Shown: positions 4,653 to 64,000 of the stretch, piece after piece
How positions within the stretch are numbered: position 1 is the first letter of the stretch
Layout: each line of letters starts with the position of its first letter
From: a virus
Strand: one strand, 5' to 3'
Virus genome (UHGV): UHGV-0178594
Length of the DNA: 64,000 bases
Made by a program: the position numbers and the translations under genes
The notes under the pieces: model-generated
What the model was told of the DNA's origin: nothing
The model's input: only the letters and a program-made list of their open reading frames with translations
The model's database searches: none

Positions 4653-5849
4653 TTAAGAACCTTTCTTCACATACTCCATAAACATTTTTTCAGCTTGCTC
4701 AGGTGACGTTCCTGTCATGACCAGCGCATCAATGAACGCTTGCTTCTTCAGTGCGAATTGATCGGCAAGGCGTTGCTGAAGCTCCTTGTTTTTCTGTTTC
4801 TCACGTTGCAAGGCTGCTTCTTTTGCTGCTGCCCGTTTTTTCTGTGCATCGGACAACTTTCTGGCCCTGGTCAGCTGGTCACGTAGCTTGTCAATCTTGC
4901 CGTTGTCCTTTGCCAGTTTTGTGCTTAAAGCGGCCTGGCGTTTCTGATAGAGCTTCCATTCACGTTTAGCTGCCTCAACATTCGTTTTGCTGCTACGGTT
5001 TCGATTGAACGCCTTCTCGTCTTCTTTTGTGAAGTGTTTTGTCGTGCGGCGGCGATCGTCACCAAAGGCAACTTGCGTTGCAGCTTTTTGCAGGGCGCGA
5101 GCAATACTCATCTGCCAACTGGCAGACTGTAGTCGTGTCATTGAGTGGATCACATGTTTACAGGCGACGCCTTGCAGCTTAGGGTTGCGAACTTTTGGAT
5201 AGGCGTATTCTTTTGGCGGGGCCAGGGCAAAGTTACCTGCAGTGGCGATGTAGCGATACCAGTATTGATGGCGACCGCAGTCACAATCGAAAGACACTCG
5301 CCCGGCACACAGTGATTTTGTGACTTTCAGGGCTGATTTATCGTCTTCTGCGATGTCATCGACCATCTGATCCCATTCTTCAAAACGTACCCGGACAATG
5401 TGGTGCTGGTGAACGGATATATCGGACGCTTCCACGCGGATATTAATCACATTGTGACGAAGAGATACGGGCGTAGCTCTTTTGATACCAGAACCGTCGT
5501 CTACGGCGTTATTTGCTCGCTTAATATCGATAGCCTGGCTGGACGCTACCAGTTGTGCGTATGTAATGCCAGCCGTCTTGCTGTCGTATTTTTCGCGAGC
5601 TTTGCTTCGCAGCTTTTCGAAGCCTTTCAGATCGTCACGCGTAAAGAACGTGCCGCCTTTCTTTTTCCCCAGCTTAAGAATGTCTTCGGCTGATTTATTC
5701 CTAAGCCTGCCCGGCGTGAGTGTCCTGTTCGCCTGGCGGCGTTTGCGGTTTTGCTCTTTCCTGATGAGTTCAAATACGCGTGTGAAATCCTTAGAGGACA
5801 GGCCGTCAGTGATATATCGCCCGTCCTGATTTTTCAGGAAGTCAGGCAT
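4653..5849 (-). CDS. SWIM-type zinc-finger protein with basic coiled-coil C-terminus
   Basis: 398 aa; CxC...CxH motif (FDCDCGRHQYWYRY...GVACKHVIH); K/R/Q-rich tail. Confidence 0.55.
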   Translation of the reverse strand: MPDFLKNQDGRYITDGLSSKDFTRVFELIRKEQNRKRRQANRTLTPGRLRNKSAEDILKLGKKKGGTFFTRDDLKGFEKLRSKAREKYDSKTAGITYAQLVASSQAIDIKRANNAVDDGSGIKRATPVSLRHNVINIRVEASDISVHQHHIVRVRFEEWDQMVDDIAEDDKSALKVTKSLCAGRVSFDCDCGRHQYWYRYIATAGNFALAPPKEYAYPKVRNPKLQGVACKHVIHSMTRLQSASWQMSIARALQKAATQVAFGDDRRRTTKHFTKEDEKAFNRNRSSKTNVEAAKREWKLYQKRQAALSTKLAKDNGKIDKLRDQLTRARKLSDAQKKRAAAKEAALQREKQKNKELQQRLADQFALKKQAFIDALVMTGTSPEQAEKMFMEYVKKGS

Positions 5850-29276: not shown

Positions 29277-29617
29277 TTGCGCCCCCTTGCCGGATAGCGC
29301 CCGGCATTTGCATCAGGAGCAATGAAGCCGCTGGTGGGGCGAGTGAAAACATGGTTAATTTTCTCGGTCATAGCGCGATAATTTTCCTGATAGTGGGCCA
29401 GGAGTTTTTCAGCAGCAATGACGGTTACTTTCCGGACGTAGCGTTCAGCTTCCTCCAGATTTCGCCAGTTTTTTTCGAGGGTAAACACGGGAACGGCATC
29501 AAGTCCGGTCATAACACCGAACACCACGACCGCCTGGTCGCGCTTAACGCCCGCAGTGAAGGTTATGGTGTAACCGTCAACAGTGAAGCGTTTTGATTCC
29601 GTAATACGATTGTGCAA
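29273..29617 (-). CDS. hypothetical protein (immediately downstream of cre-like gene)
   Basis: 114-aa ORF. Confidence 0.45.
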   Translation of the reverse strand: MHNRITESKRFTVDGYTITFTAGVKRDQAVVVFGVMTGLDAVPVFTLEKNWRNLEEAERYVRKVTVIAAEKLLAHYQENYRAMTEKINHVFTRPTSGFIAPDANAGRYPARGRK

Positions 29618-29689
29618 AGTACCCTCCGCAATAGGCGAGGGTACTTTACATTAAAATGCACTGTCTAAAAAGATTGTTAGAAAATTAAT

Positions 29690-30718
29690 TTATGAATCCA
29701 TCAGGCGACTATTTGCACCAACGGATGCCCCGCTACGGCGCAAATATCGCATAAGTGTTTCGGGCTTTTTCCATGTGCCTTCCTGCATGATCTCGACCAT
29801 TGACACCTGTTTCTCAGCCATATCAATTGCCGCACCAACACGCGCACTATGGCCTGTCCACGTCCGGTATCTTCCTTTGTTCGGCGTGGCATCTCGTTTG
29901 TTCAGCAACCCCCAGGCATCGCTGAATATTTTCTCCATTGCAGGTGCAGTAAGGGGAGTTGTCGTGATTCTGGCCTTATTACTGCGGTGTATTGGCGGGA
30001 ATAGCACCGCGTCCGGATGTTGACGAAGTCCGGACACCTCCAGCCAGTCGTTCAGTACGGCGGTAGTGCAACGAGAAAGCACCTTATCAAGTCCGGCGGC
30101 GGTCGTGATGGTCTTCGTGTGCGAAATATGCAGCGTTACAGTGTCACCTGTTTGGTCCAGATCTCCGACGCGGATGCGCGAGATTTCTGACATACGCATC
30201 AGGGTATTGTATGCCACGAAGAGAAACGCCCGATTGCGCAGGTCCACCAGCCGCTCGGAACGGGACAGCAATACGTCGAGCAATTTCAGATCATCCCACC
30301 GCAACGGTATAGCCTGGCCTGTTCGCTCGCCTTTTTCCGTTGCCGCTTCGCGCCGGATGCGCCGCATGGCCAGAGACACACTTTTATCGTCCGACAGCGG
30401 CGGGAGGCCACATTGCGAAAGCAGCATGTTAAGCATGGCATAGTGCTTATCAATGGTGGTCGAAGCCAGATCGGCCTCATGCAACTGGAGAAGATACTCG
30501 CGGGCCATTTCCGACGTAATCGGGAACCAGGGGCGCTGGCGCGAGTTACACCACCGCGCCCAGGAATGAAACACCAGACGGAGATCACGAAGTGTATTTG
30601 GGGCATAAGCTCCCTGGTCGTTCATGAACTGCATAAAGTTTTTTGCAGCTTCCTGGTATTCGGTGCCAATATCGCGCAGAAAACCACCAGAACCGCCGGA
30701 GATAACTAGTTCACCCAT
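29690..30718 (-). CDS. Cre-like tyrosine site-specific recombinase
   Basis: Extended similarity to P1 Cre (WFP...YLL.L...SLAMRRIRRE...RNRAFLFVAYNTLMR, SGHSARVGAA.DMA); 342 aa. Confidence 0.8.
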   Translation of the reverse strand: MGELVISGGSGGFLRDIGTEYQEAAKNFMQFMNDQGAYAPNTLRDLRLVFHSWARWCNSRQRPWFPITSEMAREYLLQLHEADLASTTIDKHYAMLNMLLSQCGLPPLSDDKSVSLAMRRIRREAATEKGERTGQAIPLRWDDLKLLDVLLSRSERLVDLRNRAFLFVAYNTLMRMSEISRIRVGDLDQTGDTVTLHISHTKTITTAAGLDKVLSRCTTAVLNDWLEVSGLRQHPDAVLFPPIHRSNKARITTTPLTAPAMEKIFSDAWGLLNKRDATPNKGRYRTWTGHSARVGAAIDMAEKQVSMVEIMQEGTWKKPETLMRYLRRSGASVGANSRLMDS

Positions 30719-30870
30719 GAAACTATTAAACCTCTATATACAGATAACGCTACGTGAAAAATAGAAAACTGACAGGGTAGTTATAAGTTAATTTTCAAAA
30801 TTCAAGCCTTTGATTCGAGGCATGATTTTTCATCCTTGTCAATACTGCCAGTTTACTGGAGATTATAGCC

Positions 30871-30902
30871 TAACTTTAAATAATGCCAATTATTTAAAGT
30901 TA
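30871..30902. promoter_or_regulatory. lox-like recombination site candidate (13-bp inverted repeats, 6-bp spacer)
   Basis: TAACTTTAAATAA-tgccaa-TTATTTAAAGTTA, perfect arms; 153 bp upstream of cre-like start; arm begins TAACTT as in loxP. Confidence 0.5.
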
Positions 30903-31098
30903 GAAATCGGAACTTTTTTCCCAAAAAAACACCGACCAGATCACTTCGCAAATCCGTCAGCCATGCGGTAGCCGCTCCTGGTTACATTTTCTAATAGGAA
31001 CAATCAAAAAAAAGCGGTTTTATCCTTTACTCACCTTGTTATTCAGCATAAATTTGTCACAGGACTTTTATGTTAGAAAACTAAATCGAGTAGGAATA

Positions 31099-32136
31099 AT
31101 GAGTAAGAAGTCGATCGAGAATGAGTACAAACGGTTCCTGCAAACCGCTGAACGGTGGAAAGAGCTGGTGGTCGCAAACTCTGTTTTCCATGATACCAGT
31201 TATGTTGGCGAGGAATTTCGCCATGTTGCATTAACACATGATCCGGCTGTATTAGAAGAAGCTGAAAAATGCATAGCCGAATGGAAAGCCTTTGTTGATC
31301 TGTGTCGCAAGGATGATGACAAAGCCTCAAACATTGTTGAGTCGGTTTATTTACCGATCCCATTCATTGTTGAGGATACTAATCAGAGTACGCACATCGT
31401 TATGCAAAGCGCAACCACAACGAGAACATTTACGCGCGAAGACCTGCTGAAAAAATACGATAAAACTATAAAGAAAAGCATGAAAAACAGGATATTTTCA
31501 CAGGTTGTCGGTGCGCTTGAAGAAGAACGCAGATTCTTCGCCGCTGAACGTGAGGGCGAGGTATACCGCGCAAGAAAAGAAGGTTATACCGATGTGGTGA
31601 TTACCACCAATATTGAGGGCAACAATGGACTTTCACGCTTCAGAGTGGGTACGCACGGTGCGCTGATCTTTGCAAAAAAAGCAAACACAGAGATTCCCGT
31701 TGTTAACAACGTTGGTGAGCGCCGCACCCTTACCATTTACACTGGCATTAAACCGCTTCCGTGCGGACTTCTCGGCGAATTTGACCTTTATCGGGTTCGT
31801 GATCTGGAAAAGCAGCAGCCAAGCTACGTCGTGAAGTCATATATCCTGAGAAACATTGATATCCGCAATCAGAGTTTAAAAAACAAATCAGATAAAATGC
31901 TGGCCGAAGCCGATCCAGCCATACACCAGATCGTAAGCCGGAAAATTCAAGAGGCTAAAGATGCAATGGCAAGGCTGGATAAAATGGACCTGGAACTACT
32001 GGAAGTTATGATTGCCTCCGGCGATGACCTGACAGGCATCCGCCTTACTGAAGCCAGGAAAAAATACGGTAAAAGCGTTGAAGAACGCTATGGGTACACA
32101 TTCACACAAACGATGTACGCGGCAAAACTCTGGTAA
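31099..32136 (+). CDS. hypothetical protein; positional analogue of P1 c1 (between pacB and lox)
   Basis: 346-aa ORF convergent with pacB-like gene; GTTAGAA half-site in its leader; no recognisable motif. Confidence 0.4.
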   Translation: MSKKSIENEYKRFLQTAERWKELVVANSVFHDTSYVGEEFRHVALTHDPAVLEEAEKCIAEWKAFVDLCRKDDDKASNIVESVYLPIPFIVEDTNQSTHIVMQSATTTRTFTREDLLKKYDKTIKKSMKNRIFSQVVGALEEERRFFAAEREGEVYRARKEGYTDVVITTNIEGNNGLSRFRVGTHGALIFAKKANTEIPVVNNVGERRTLTIYTGIKPLPCGLLGEFDLYRVRDLEKQQPSYVVKSYILRNIDIRNQSLKNKSDKMLAEADPAIHQIVSRKIQEAKDAMARLDKMDLELLEVMIASGDDLTGIRLTEARKKYGKSVEERYGYTFTQTMYAAKLW

Positions 32137-32153: not shown

Positions 32154-32175
32154 GCCCCGAATCGCCGGGGCTTTT
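32154..32175 (+). terminator. rho-independent terminator
   Basis: gccccg-aatcgc-cggggc hairpin followed by TTTT. Confidence 0.55.
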
Positions 32176-33682
32176 AAATGTCAATATCAGGAATATCCAC
32201 TTCTGCCAACACCTGATCGCGGAATGTTGCGAGTTCTGCGCCAATGTCTTCATTAGCAGGCACGTAATCCACCAGCATAGTGAAGCAGTAGGTATCCCAT
32301 CTGTCCGGTGACTTGATGTTTAACTTCTGCCGCATGTGCTCCTTGCGCATCATCGCTACCTTCCCTTCTTCGTTAAGCATATACGGGATTTTTGATGCCT
32401 GATCTGCGGTTTTGGGGTCACTATCGATACGCATACGCCCGGATTTAATGGCATCCCCTGCCATAATATTGGCGTAAGCACGCTGATTGACAAAGCGTTC
32501 TCTGTCTCTTAGCGCAAACATAGGCTTACCCCAACGGATGCGAACGGGATTAGCACCACGGCGGACAAGCTGCGCACACGTATCTGAACCAAAGCCATCA
32601 GCATCCACAGCAATGGTGATGTTCGGGTATTTATCAGGAGTGCATTCGTTATAGATAAAGTCGGCAAAAGCCAACGGGTCCATAGTGCCTGGCATCTCCA
32701 GTATCTTAAAGTTCACAACGCGTCGTTTCTCACGATAACCGGATACTTTGCATATATTGAGCACCGATTTATCGCGACCATTACCGACGTCAGCGGTCGC
32801 TACCCAGCCCCAATCTTTCTCCAGCAACACTTTACGCCGTGCGGCGCGGTCGCACTCATCACGACCAAGCAAATACCCGTTAATTGCACGCGGGAACTGG
32901 CCCAGCACCTTAACCATGTACTCCAGCGAATCCCTGCCGCCGTACTCCAGCAATTTCTCACGAATAAAGCTCGGTTCAACGAATGGTGATTCTTCAGAGT
33001 TAAGGACTATTGCCGTCCAGACACCTTCCGGATTGCCTTCTGCCTTTGCCCTTGAATGGTGAGATTCATAAAAGTAACCGCTTGGACGCGTAGGCTGGGA
33101 AAGCATGAGCATACGGTTATCTTTCTGCGTTAACGCCCCCGTCATGACGTTAATCGCCTTATCGGATATGCCCGATGCTTCATCAAGAATTAGCAGTAAA
33201 TGCTCCGCGTGCTCCCCCGCCAGTGCCTCTTCGTTACCGAGTCGATAACCTTTACAGAGCACTTCCCATATCCCTTTACGGGAACGCTCATAAAACATGG
33301 TGTCAGACAGGACAAAATAGGTCTGTAACCAGCCGTGGCGCTTAACAGCATTCGCCCAAAACTGTTTCACGTATTTGAATACGCCTGTTTTTACCTGGCC
33401 TATTTTGTTCGCAACAATAATGACGCGGGCGTCGGGGAACAGGATCATAAAAATTAGTAGCAACATCGCGGTAAGGGACGACTTACCCGTTCCGTGTCCG
33501 GACGTAACGGTCGTCCTGCTTCCCGTCTCCTGCACTGACTGAATGATCTGCTGCTGCTGGTGGGAGGGGAACATCCCAAAAATATCGACAACCGCCTGGG
33601 TAAAGTTGTATCGATACCTGATAACCATATCGCGCCAACGTGGATCACTGGTGACGCACTTAATCTTACGACCACCAGCCAT
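32174..33682 (-). CDS. terminase large subunit (PacB-like)
   Basis: 502 aa; Walker A-like TSGHGTGKSS and overall terminase ATPase/nuclease layout; downstream of PacA-like gene. Confidence 0.7.
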   Translation of the reverse strand: MAGGRKIKCVTSDPRWRDMVIRYRYNFTQAVVDIFGMFPSHQQQQIIQSVQETGSRTTVTSGHGTGKSSLTAMLLLIFMILFPDARVIIVANKIGQVKTGVFKYVKQFWANAVKRHGWLQTYFVLSDTMFYERSRKGIWEVLCKGYRLGNEEALAGEHAEHLLLILDEASGISDKAINVMTGALTQKDNRMLMLSQPTRPSGYFYESHHSRAKAEGNPEGVWTAIVLNSEESPFVEPSFIREKLLEYGGRDSLEYMVKVLGQFPRAINGYLLGRDECDRAARRKVLLEKDWGWVATADVGNGRDKSVLNICKVSGYREKRRVVNFKILEMPGTMDPLAFADFIYNECTPDKYPNITIAVDADGFGSDTCAQLVRRGANPVRIRWGKPMFALRDRERFVNQRAYANIMAGDAIKSGRMRIDSDPKTADQASKIPYMLNEEGKVAMMRKEHMRQKLNIKSPDRWDTYCFTMLVDYVPANEDIGAELATFRDQVLAEVDIPDIDI

Positions 33683-35046
33683 TAGTCATCCTCCGGCTGG
33701 TCTATCGCAATCTCGTCATCTACAGCATCAAAACCGGTATCCCCCGCGTCATAATCACCGTAGATATCAGCCGTGGCGTAAGGGTCTATATTCAGGTCTT
33801 CATCATTGGCCTCAAATTCACCGGCTTTACGTTCTCCGTTCCGGTCGTAATCCCCCATCCCAAGCCTATCAACGATTTTCGCTACTTCAGCCCGGCGTTG
33901 TGCAAGCCATTGTGGGAGTCCAGCTTGTTGCTCGGCAAACTGCTTCGCCTCTTTATCCAGTTGCTCATCATCAACATCGTTAACGTCAGAAACCGGAGGC
34001 TCCAGAAGTGAGATCGCTTTTGCCGCTCGTGCCGCCAGGATAGCCGGGACACTGACGCCCTGCCGCTCGATATATTCAGCAACACCTATATCATCCAGCT
34101 CCTCGCGCTCACGCATACGTATAGCGGCGGCGATAACCCTGGCGGCGCGTGCGTCAGCGCCAATGCGATACTCAATCTCCTTGCCACGCTGCTCGGCTTG
34201 TAGGCGGGCAATCGCCAGTTTTTCTCTGGCCTCAGCCTCCCTGAATGCCTGCTGACGCGCGCCCTGCGCAAGTTTTTCATCCCCCTGGCGTAGCTTCTGC
34301 TCGTTCTGATAGATGGCTGCCAGCCTGGTGATAAAGTCATTCATGTAGTAGGCCGCATCGCTGATCAGTCCGAGAAGACGCTGCCCTGGGTGCATCCCCT
34401 CTGGCTGTGTATCACCGAGGGCGTCAATCTCTTCCTGTAGTCGCTCCGCTTCCTGGTCAACGATAGCCTGATACTGAATTGCTCGTTCCTGCGCCATCTG
34501 AATCGCAAGTCGTAAATGTTCAGTCGCGCCGTTCTTCATCATCTCACGGGCGACGTTGGTGGCAGGCAAAGTGGTGCTTTGAGCTGATGAATCAGGGATC
34601 ATTTGCAATGATCCCTTGTTTCGTTGGGCTTTATCGCTGCTTTTAGGGATCATTTCTCCCATTTCATCACAAAATGATCCCTTCACATCCTTGTGTATCT
34701 TGTTGTTATTACTTGGCTTTTCTTTGTGATCCGCATTTTGTTTTTGCGGCATGGCGCGGAACCGTCCACCAGCCAAAGATTTGTCAGTTTTTGTAAATTC
34801 TGTGCTTTTATTAGCCTTTTTTTGCTCTTTTTTTGAGCCGGTGGCGCTGCTTTTTGCGCGCTGTTTTGTACTTTTCCCGGTAGCCTTAGCTTTCGCCTTA
34901 ACCTCATTTTTTTTCATATTGAGATGCTTTCTGGCGGTGTTAAAGCTGAGGTCATGCTGCTCGCAATATTCTTTTATGGTGATCCCGGTTTCTTCTCTTA
35001 ACTCCAGGAACTTAGCTCGATGCGCTTCCCAGTTAATTAACGTCAT
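33682..35046 (-). CDS. terminase small / pac-recognition subunit (PacA-like)
   Basis: N-terminal HTH-like segment; GATC hexamer cluster inside the gene as in P1 pacA; ATGA-coupled to pacB-like. Confidence 0.55.
   Translation of the reverse strand: MTLINWEAHRAKFLELREETGITIKEYCEQHDLSFNTARKHLNMKKNEVKAKAKATGKSTKQRAKSSATGSKKEQKKANKSTEFTKTDKSLAGGRFRAMPQKQNADHKEKPSNNNKIHKDVKGSFCDEMGEMIPKSSDKAQRNKGSLQMIPDSSAQSTTLPATNVAREMMKNGATEHLRLAIQMAQERAIQYQAIVDQEAERLQEEIDALGDTQPEGMHPGQRLLGLISDAAYYMNDFITRLAAIYQNEQKLRQGDEKLAQGARQQAFREAEAREKLAIARLQAEQRGKEIEYRIGADARAARVIAAAIRMREREELDDIGVAEYIERQGVSVPAILAARAAKAISLLEPPVSDVNDVDDEQLDKEAKQFAEQQAGLPQWLAQRRAEVAKIVDRLGMGDYDRNGERKAGEFEANDEDLNIDPYATADIYGDYDAGDTGFDAVDDEIAIDQPEDD
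34594..34731. promoter_or_regulatory. candidate pac site: cluster of GATC-containing hexamers (TGATCC)
   Basis: GGGATCATT x2 and AATGATCCC x2 as inverted pairs plus TGATCC at 34726; five GATC in ~135 bp inside pacA-like gene. Confidence 0.45.
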
Positions 35047-36950: not shown

Positions 36951-37026
36951 TGGTGGCCCCTACCGGACTTGAACCGGTGACCGTGCGATTATGAGTCGCC
37001 CGCTCTAACCACTGAGCTAAAGGGCC
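36951..37026 (-). tRNA. tRNA, anticodon CAU (tRNA-Ile2/ileX-like or Met)
   Basis: 76 nt, GGCCCTTTAGCTCAGTGGTTAGAGC...CTCATAA...GGTTCAAGTCC...CCA; close to E. coli tRNA-Ile(LAU). Confidence 0.8.
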
Positions 37027-37455
37027 AGATTACTGTTAATTACGCTTACGCTTTTTGCCAGAACCGCGTAAGGCTTTTGCCGCTTGCTCTACCCCGTATG
37101 CAACCACCAGCAGAAACAATAATGTCCACTCCGGGTTTTTATCGGCAAACGCCCAAAAATCCATCACTTGCAGCCACCTTTTAAGACAAAACGCCATTGC
37201 TGTTAGGTTGCGGTGCCGGGTGCCTCCCGGTGACGTTAACCAGTTAACAATTAACGCCGGATCACTTATGGATTCTCGTTACGCCAGTAAAAAGACCACC
37301 TTTACTGTTTTAACTGTTCCGCGTGCGCTTAGCCGCATTCACCGCAATGGTAAGAGCATTTGGCTGACTGGGCGGCGATGACGCCTGTACGCATTTGGTG
37401 ATCCGGTTCTGCTTCCGGCATTCGCTTAATTAGCCAAATACTCTTAACGTTGCGC

Positions 37456-37542
37456 TGGCGGAGAGTAATGGAATCGAACCATCATCGCTTGCGCAATGGG
37501 ACGGTTTTCAAGACCGCTTGAGCACCATGCTCCCTACTCTCC
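37456..37542 (-). tRNA. type II tRNA, anticodon UGA (Ser candidate), atypical D-arm
   Basis: 87 nt; acceptor GGAGAGT/ACTCTCC, loop CTTGAAA, long variable arm, T-loop TTCGATT, encoded CCA. Confidence 0.5.
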
Positions 37543-37647
37543 AGTGATTGTGATGGTCGGTGCTGAACTCCGACACAGGGTTGTAGCAAGCCCCGCAAAG
37601 CGCGCACTACTGTAGTTGCGGCACATCAGCCTGTGCATTCATCACAA

Positions 37648-37725
37648 CGGTAAGGGTACTTCGTAGGGATTCGAACCCTCTGCCAAGCTCGGCGATCTCC
37701 GACGTCGCAAAATACCCTTACCTGT
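37648..37725 (-). other. tRNA-like fragment / degenerate tRNA
   Basis: Contains GGGTTCGAATCCC T-arm inside an 8-bp closing helix but no canonical D or anticodon arm. Confidence 0.3.
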
Positions 37726-37730
37726 TGTGT

Positions 37731-37806
37731 TGGTGCCGGTTAACGGACTCGAACCGCTGACATCCTGCTTACAAGGCAGGCGCTCTACCAACTGAGCTAA
37801 ACCGGC
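37731..37806 (-). tRNA. tRNA-Thr (anticodon UGU)
   Basis: GCCGGTTTAGCTCAGTTGGTAGAGC...CTTGTAA...GGTTCGAGTCC...AACCGGCACCA. Confidence 0.8.
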
Positions 37807-37810
37807 AATT

Positions 37811-37897
37811 TGGTGGGGAGTGATGGAGTCGAACCATCCGAGTCGCAATGACAGTAGATTTACAGTCTACCCCGCTACCCCTACGGACTAACTCCCC
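37811..37897 (-). tRNA. tRNA-Tyr (anticodon GUA), type II
   Basis: 87 nt; anticodon loop CTGTAAA, long variable arm, T-loop TTCGACT, CCA end. Confidence 0.75.
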
Positions 37898-37902
37898 TAA
37901 AT

Positions 37903-37979
37903 TGGCGATGGTGGGTGGATTCGAACCACCGACCGACAGCTTAGAAGGCTGCTGCTCTATCCTACTGAGCTACACCATC
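37903..37979 (-). tRNA. tRNA-Arg (anticodon UCU)
   Basis: GATGGTGTAGCTCAGTAGGATAGAGC...CTTCTAA...GGTTCGAATCC...CACCATCGCCA. Confidence 0.75.
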
Positions 37980-62512: not shown

Positions 62513-64000
62513 TTAATAACCATAAGCAACATACTGTGCATATATTTTATCAGTGGAGCTACTTTTCACTGTAAAACCAGTGGCTGAGTGGTTGTATGTA
62601 TAAAGAATTGAATTGACAGCATTCCCGCTGTGAGGCGAAATCACAACTACCGCACACGCCTCAGGAAAAGTAGTCGGAAAGTTAACCACGCTTCCTGGAG
62701 TTAAATTTGTTATAAACCCCCACTGCATCATCACCCTAGTTGATGTATCCTTATGCCATCCATGAATGTTGGCATATGCTGTGTTTTTAGCCTGATATTT
62801 CGTGTTGAAATTACTATAGTTACCAGGGGTAATCTGACCAGCGGCAGATAAATTCCCCATAACCCTTACATGACCATCAGCACGTCCTAATTCTACGCGA
62901 CCATCACCGCCATCTATCTTTAATGGAGTGTAAACGACATCACCATTAACATTTTGCCCAGTGGTTGATATCTGGAAACTATATCCAGTATTAGTTATTA
63001 GGAATCCATAGTTATTATTATAAGTTAGGCGTATAGCATTTTGGCTGCTGGATATAATTTCACCGGTAACAGTACCACCTGTTGTTGGTAACGCACCAAC
63101 ATGACTTGCCGTTAATGTGATGTCTGCAGAACCATCAAAAGCCACTCCACTTATTTTTCTGGCAGTTTTTAACTTTGTCGCTGTAGCTGCATTACCACTT
63201 GTATTTTGATTTCCGGCAATATTAACGCCCGGAAGATTGATGTTTGCTGTACCATCAAACGAAACCCCGCCTATTGTGCGCGCTGTTTGTAGTTTCGTTG
63301 CAGTTGCAGCATTGCCGGTAGTGCTCTGATTACCTGTTTTATTCACGCCCGGCAGGTCGATGTTTGCGGTGCCATTAAATGAAACACCACCAATAGTTCT
63401 TGCCGTTTGTAATTTCGTTGCAGACGCCGCGTTTCCGGTTGTGTTCTGGTTGCCTGTTGTATTTACACCAGGGATGGAATCCTTCGATGTGTAGACCTGC
63501 GCCCACTCAGACCAACTGGCTGTATCAGTATCTCGTCGCGAACGTACATGTACAGGCGCATGAGCACCACTTGTACCGCTCCAACCTATGAACAACTCGC
63601 CTTCACCAGCGGCAGTTGCGCCCTTAAGATGAAGCACATTCCCGTAAGCAGAAGGATAGCCGTTGTTGTACGCCTCATACATCTGCAATCCAGCAGCAGC
63701 ACCTTGCGTTGTACCGGTGAGCGCAGTAACACGCCCTCTGGACGTAATTGTTGGTATCGAAATGTTCGCAGAACCATCAAAATTAACACCGTTGATTGTG
63801 CGGGCTGTTTGCAGTTTTGTAGCGGTTGCAGCATTACCTGTTGTGTTCTGGTTACCGGCAATGTTCACACCCGGCAGGTTGATATTGGCGCTGCCATCAA
63901 ATGACACTCCGCCGATTGTGCGTGCCGTCTGAAGTTTCGTTGCGGTTGCAGCATTGCCGGTAGTGCTCTGATTACCTGTTTTATTCACGCCTGGCAGGTC
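62513..64000 (-). CDS. tail fibre protein (partial; likely continues beyond right edge)
   Basis: Repeated ~40-aa unit GNQ.TTGNAATATKLQTARTIGGVSFDG.ANI.LPGVN; ORF track start at 63988 may be internal. Confidence 0.7.
   Translation of the reverse strand, partial: DLPGVNKTGNQSTTGNAATATKLQTARTIGGVSFDGSANINLPGVNIAGNQNTTGNAATATKLQTARTINGVNFDGSANISIPTITSRGRVTALTGTTQGAAAGLQMYEAYNNGYPSAYGNVLHLKGATAAGEGELFIGWSGTSGAHAPVHVRSRRDTDTASWSEWAQVYTSKDSIPGVNTTGNQNTTGNAASATKLQTARTIGGVSFNGTANIDLPGVNKTGNQSTTGNAATATKLQTARTIGGVSFDGTANINLPGVNIAGNQNTSGNAATATKLKTARKISGVAFDGSADITLTASHVGALPTTGGTVTGEIISSSQNAIRLTYNNNYGFLITNTGYSFQISTTGQNVNGDVVYTPLKIDGGDGRVELGRADGHVRVMGNLSAAGQITPGNYSNFNTKYQAKNTAYANIHGWHKDTSTRVMMQWGFITNLTPGSVVNFPTTFPEACAVVVISPHSGNAVNSILYTYNHSATGFTVKSSSTDKIYAQYVAYGY
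63118..64000. repeat. intragenic ~120-bp tandem repeats in tail fibre gene
   Basis: At least five copies of the 40-codon unit at DNA and protein level. Confidence 0.6.

Follow-up and report, generated by a model that had tools for sequence, protein, structure and literature searches.

RESULTS

A recombinase gene and an inverted repeat beside a prophage repressor gene

The window, by which we mean the whole 64,000-nucleotide stretch of DNA that was analyzed (UHGV virus genome UHGV-0178594), carries on its minus strand an intact gene for a tyrosine recombinase. A perfect inverted repeat lies between the start of this gene and a divergently oriented repressor gene, beyond which two terminase genes follow. 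The features of the locus are listed below.

29690..30718, minus strand: dre allele encoding a Cre-family tyrosine recombinase; intact ORF of 342 aa with an ATG start
30862..30889, minus strand: candidate sigma-70 promoter for dre, 11/12 consensus match
30871..30902, plus strand: rox site, a perfect inverted repeat that matches the rox annotated in AY753669 at 32/32 positions
30871-30884: left arm of rox, TAACTTTAAATAAT
30885-30888: spacer of rox, GCCA
30889-30902: right arm of rox, ATTATTTAAAGTTA
31099..32136, plus strand: gene for a c1-type prophage repressor of 345 aa (80% identity to D6 C1), oriented divergently from dre with rox between the two genes
32174-33682, minus strand: pacB terminase gene, 92% identical to D6 PacB
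33682-35046, minus strand: pacA terminase gene, 74% identical to D6 PacA

The recombinase is a close relative of Dre

The 342-aa recombinase matches the Pfam families Phage_integrase (PF00589, E = 1.1e-16) and the N-terminal SAM-like domain PF02899, and its residues 22-341 align with residues 21-340 of P1 Cre, as represented by solved Cre structures, at an E value of 1e-70 and with 40.5% identity. This bears out the original prediction of a 342-aa recombinase aligning with Cre along its length. The catalytic set of the Cre subfamily is complete (7/7), consisting of R175, E178, K202, H290, R293, W316, and the nucleophile Y325, the counterparts of R173, E176, K201, H289, R292, W315, and Y324 in Cre. 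When compared with Dre of phage D6 (AAV84949), 320 of the 342 residues are identical (94%) in a gap-free alignment.

Among the 22 substitutions relative to Dre are R217C, V270G, and several that cluster at residues 58-69 in the N-terminal domain; in Cre numbering, they fall at positions 2-29, 57-80, 101, 216, 226, 232, 270, 328, and 330. At all 21 of the Cre DNA-contact or specificity positions that were checked, the window protein has the Dre residue; with the exception of K43, R259, and G263, these positions come from the Cre-loxP structure. The three exceptions, which have been named as specificity determinants of Cre (PMC4957104) and separate rox from loxP specificity, are R44, P259, and K263 in the window protein, as they are in Dre, and thus correspond to K43R, R259P, and G263K with respect to Cre. 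Between the window and D6, the dre gene has a dS of 0.69 and a dN/dS of 0.045; strong purifying selection acts on dre.

The inverted repeat is rox

The complete site at 30871..30902 reads TAACTTTAAATAATGCCAATTATTTAAAGTTA. It is identical at 32/32 positions to nucleotides 4909-4940 of AY753669, which are annotated there as a misc_recomb feature, "region of crossover (rox) site for Dre recombinase," and it also matches the rox sequence printed in PMC4777119. With up to 3 mismatches, no second copy of the palindrome occurs in the 64-kb window, and not one arose in 100 shuffles.

A repeat finder run on the window returned 15-nt arms that are 100% complementary, with 4 nt between them. The 15th arm pair (C/G) is complementary in the window and lacks complementarity in D6, and since 14 of the 15 arm bases are conserved in relatives, the site is 14-4-14 with the spacer GCCA; the published anatomy of rox is 14-bp inverted repeats with a 4-bp asymmetric spacer (PMC4777119, PMC12331466). 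The 13-6-13 architecture with a TGCCAA spacer that had been proposed for this palindrome has to be revised accordingly, as the complementarity of the arms extends one base deeper on each side. The perfect repeat itself had been recognized correctly, but the distance of 153 bp assigned to it is the difference between positions 30871 and 30718, leaving 152 bases between rox and the dre start codon. The hexamer TAACTT is indeed common to the arm and to loxP, as had been noted, but in loxP (ATAACTTCGTATA) it starts at arm position 2.

Searches of the window for loxP with up to 3 mismatches and for a second rox-like site found none. A scan of the window for additional rox half-sites yielded only one, with 2 mismatches at position 63014; with three matches in all against 0.79 expected, this half-site is within chance expectation.

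The arms of rox are invariant among dre alleles

Homologues of the module in PLSDB fall into three identity bands: 7 records at ≥97% (the window type), 105 records at 80 to 90% (D6 proper), and 81 records at ~78.7%, the last of these from Salmonella, E. coli, and Shigella. The proteins from the PLSDB bands are 87 to 94% identical to the window protein, and a viral contig (L012) encodes a homologue of ~70% identity (69.9% to Dre). The 28 arm bases of rox are invariant in alleles whose proteins are only 70 to 88% identical to the window recombinase, and the site lies 152 bp upstream of the gene in every allele compared. In an intergenic alignment of six alleles, 30 of the 32 columns that make up the site show no variation, versus a mean column identity of 75% for the region. 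The chance of 32 neutral positions all surviving is ~0.55^32 = 5e-9 as a rough figure from the divergence between the window and D6, and ~0.86^32 = 0.008 if the 86% identity of the intergenic alignment is used instead.

Three other spacers were found between 14-bp arms identical to those of rox. ACTA occurs in S. Typhi plasmid pK91 (NZ_CP029912; L004, 4272-4303), GCTA occurs beside the ~70%-identical Dre homologue (L012, 3706-3737), and CCCC occurs in another viral contig (L019, 12405-12436). A scan of GTDB with the arms only gave one match, in a Clostridia metagenome-assembled genome (OZ007016; L030, 6381-6412). There, the 32 bp are AT rich and form a palindrome of full symmetry, whose TAAT center lies between runs of A and T; no dre homologue is found nearby, and we rejected this match as an unrelated hairpin.

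The surroundings of rox are far less uniform. Together with ~10 bp adjoining it on the dre side (GATTATAGCC), rox is identical in the window and D6. Positions 30903-31040, from rox toward c1, are nearly unalignable between the two, and on the other side, toward dre, 45 bp diverges too, although less than the stretch between rox and c1. Evidently, the regulatory region next to c1 has undergone replacement, in keeping with C1 repressors that are only 80% identical.

A candidate dre promoter overlaps rox

The candidate sigma-70 promoter for dre shares part of the rox sequence. Its -35 hexamer, TTGGCA at 30889..30884, is made up of the rox spacer plus one base of each arm, and its -10 hexamer, TATAAT at 30867..30862, lies outside rox after a 16-nt spacer. 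It is one of two matches of at least 11/12 on both strands of the 64 kb. A match of 10/12 to 11/12 is retained in 4 of the 5 other alleles (D6, CP028585, the Shigella IncY plasmid, and L012) and is lost in the allele with the ACTA spacer. The overlap of this predicted promoter with rox suggests that rox-bound Dre may repress its own synthesis.

The window is part of a D6-like plasmid prophage

On its downstream side, dre is followed by two small ORFs and a dUTPase gene, so that the local order is dut, orf, orf, dre, rox, c1, pacB, pacA, the same as in the D6 immC region. The two terminase genes (32174..35046) lie 1.3 to 4.1 kb from rox, in the order seen in AY753669 and MF356679. In a megablast search of phage records with positions 29600-31000, the only phage matched was D6, with ~86% identity falling on its dre and rox features. 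The whole window runs colinear with the genome of D6 (91 kb), with 50.6 kb aligned at a mean identity of 86% and the colinear stretch running from 64.8 kb of D6 through the rox origin to ~36 kb.

Plasmids of ~90 kb in E. coli and E. marmotae carry the same allele (≥97% identity). Besides the 7 PLSDB records, complete E. coli genomes contain 17 records at this level, the best being NZ_CP104667 with 99.6%, a plasmid typed as non-mobilizable. Among the dre-rox matches in E. coli RefSeq records, 153 of 158 are on plasmids and 5 are on records labeled as chromosomes, which could represent integration or cointegrates of D6-like elements. The element also carries plasmid maintenance genes, as does D6. 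From the colinearity with D6 and the plasmid matches, it follows that the window belongs to a D6-like, P1-type plasmid prophage, a class that has already been described (PMC6799933). The presence of Dre and rox in E. coli genomes was previously noted by Karimova et al. (PMC4957104).

ARAGORN identified five tRNA genes on the minus strand at 36951-37979 (Met, Ser-UGA, Thr, Tyr, and Arg-UCU); at the syntenic place, the D6 record has three (Ser, Thr, and Asn) on the opposite strand.

DISCUSSION

Our data identify the locus, with high confidence, as the Dre/rox recombination module of a D6-like (P1-type) Escherichia plasmid prophage, consisting of a natural dre allele and a canonical rox site. The sequence-level features that define Dre/rox were all found here, namely, an orthologous recombinase, the rox sequence, the Dre-type specificity residues, and the location between dre and c1 in the immC region. 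With respect to its functional class, the original prediction was right, the locus having a recombinase of the Cre family and, a short distance upstream, the lox-type site that belongs to it. The pair, however, is already known, and the claim of a new lox-type site is wrong: with a site identical to rox at 32/32 positions and a protein that is 94% Dre, this is Dre/rox itself. Comparison with published rox, one of the checks proposed along with that claim, yields identity, hence no new site. Nor is orthogonality to Cre/loxP, which had been put forward as a prediction for the supposed new pair, a novel expectation, as it has already been published for Dre/rox (PMC12331466). The description of Dre/rox is credited to Sauer and McDermott in 2004 (PMC4777119).

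Compared with the Dre/rox system of Escherichia (Salmonella) phage D6 (AY753669, MF356679), the window has the same 32-bp rox, the same gap-free 342-aa protein length, the same 152-bp distance, and the same gene neighborhood. It differs by the 22 substitutions in the protein and by region DNA that is only ~86% identical, and the element represents a D6-like lineage distinct from D6, present in plasmids of E. coli and E. marmotae. With P1 Cre/loxP, it shares the fold, the family, the R-E-K-H-R-W-Y catalytic set, and a genomic arrangement in which a plasmid prophage has the recombinase gene and the target site side by side in its pac-c1 region. Unlike in P1, the site is 14-4-14 rather than the 13-8-13 of loxP, the protein identity of 40.5% is low, and loxP does not occur in the window. 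A third system, Panto/pox from Pantoea sp. aB (PMC4957104), likewise has a Cre-type recombinase, and rox is among the sites that Panto recombines. In its arms, pox departs from rox at one base (PMC4957104); the site in the window is exactly rox and not pox.

By analogy with Dre and Cre, one Dre monomer would occupy each of the two 14-bp arms of a rox site, and two such sites would synapse in a tetramer. Tyr325 would then cleave and exchange one pair of strands and subsequently the other via a Holliday junction in the central region, with the asymmetric GCCA core setting the direction of the site. This recombination could serve the element in two ways, both suggested by analogy with P1 Cre/lox. 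On infection, it may circularize linear genomes with terminal redundancy and a rox site at either end, and it may resolve dimers of the plasmid prophage to monomers for partition. Cyclization and dimer resolution are reportedly the roles of Cre/lox in P1, as Austin, Ziese and Sternberg in 1981 and Lobocka et al. in 2004 are said to have described. A search of pacA for a P1-style pac site, that is, a cluster of TGATCA/G Dam hexamers, found one hexamer only, at 34362, and the densest clusters of TGATCA/G in the window are near 58.3 kb, outside pacA. We infer the putative position of pac relative to rox by analogy.

It is conceivable that the 22 differences from Dre alter the target specificity, in which case the true site would be a new lox-type sequence and rox would be a relic. 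The number of substitutions and the clustering of several of them at N-terminal residues 58-69 are what such a scenario could draw on. However, canonical rox, perfectly kept while its flanks diverge, is the one lox-like inverted repeat in the vicinity of the gene, none of the substitutions affects a checked DNA-contact or specificity position, and the window offers no second rox-like site, the half-site at 63014 being within chance expectation. Moreover, recombinases with only 70 to 88% identity to that of the window keep the same arms, and Panto still uses rox despite an identity to Dre of only 52% (PMC4957104). Since a recombinase this distant recombines rox, loss of rox recognition in a 94%-identical allele is very unlikely, and we regard the altered-specificity scenario as highly improbable. 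For D6 Dre, recombination of rox and the absence of cross-reaction with Cre/loxP have been published (PMC12331466). Judging from its sequence, the window allele would be expected to behave likewise, recombining rox with rox and not loxP.

Two further explanations would take the palindrome or the recombinase out of its role in Dre/rox recombination, and both appear scarcely credible to us. The palindrome might be mainly a transcription element, such as a promoter, an operator, or a hairpin between dre and c1, rather than a recombination site, a notion encouraged by the 11/12 sigma-70 match that overlaps it and points into dre. Yet the identical sequence is the experimentally defined crossover site of Dre, the invariance of 28/28 arm bases goes far beyond the needs of a -35 hexamer, and a role as a promoter is compatible with a role in recombination and no substitute for it. 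Alternatively, the recombinase might act as an integrase, with a rox-like site on the host chromosome as the point of insertion of the element, as the 5 of 158 E. coli matches on chromosome-labeled records could indicate. This is difficult to reconcile with the 153 matches on plasmids, with the plasmid maintenance genes that the element has in common with D6, and with a site that is a symmetric lox-type 14-4-14 core without arm-type sites.

As a discovery, this assignment has little value, Dre/rox having been a standard genome-engineering tool beside Cre/loxP since 2004. The useful outcome is a negative one, in that the candidate new lox-type site is not worth pursuing as a new orthogonal pair. 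Of modest value are the invariance of the rox arms among Dre homologues down to ~70% protein identity, the spacer variants, and the embedded candidate promoter.

More speculatively, and rather doubtfully when taken together, rox might double as the core of an autoregulated dre promoter, the spacer variants ACTA, GCTA, and CCCC might define heterospecific classes of rox, and the allele with 22 substitutions might differ usefully from laboratory Dre in its activity. If there is a dre promoter in rox, two constraints would act simultaneously on the spacer sequence, and an active embedded promoter would matter when rox is placed upstream of genes in bacterial constructs. If the spacer variants are heterospecific, they could stop co-resident D6-like phage-plasmids from fusing and would provide ready-made orthogonal rox sites.

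Two plasmids of the ~78.7% band were inspected, one from Shigella flexneri (NZ_CP054995, IncY; L003) and the other being L004; one is IncY and one is IncFIB, and IS26 adjoins the module in both. One of the two carries the macrolide resistance genes mph(A), mrx(A), and mef(B), and the other has a pacB shortened by IS26.
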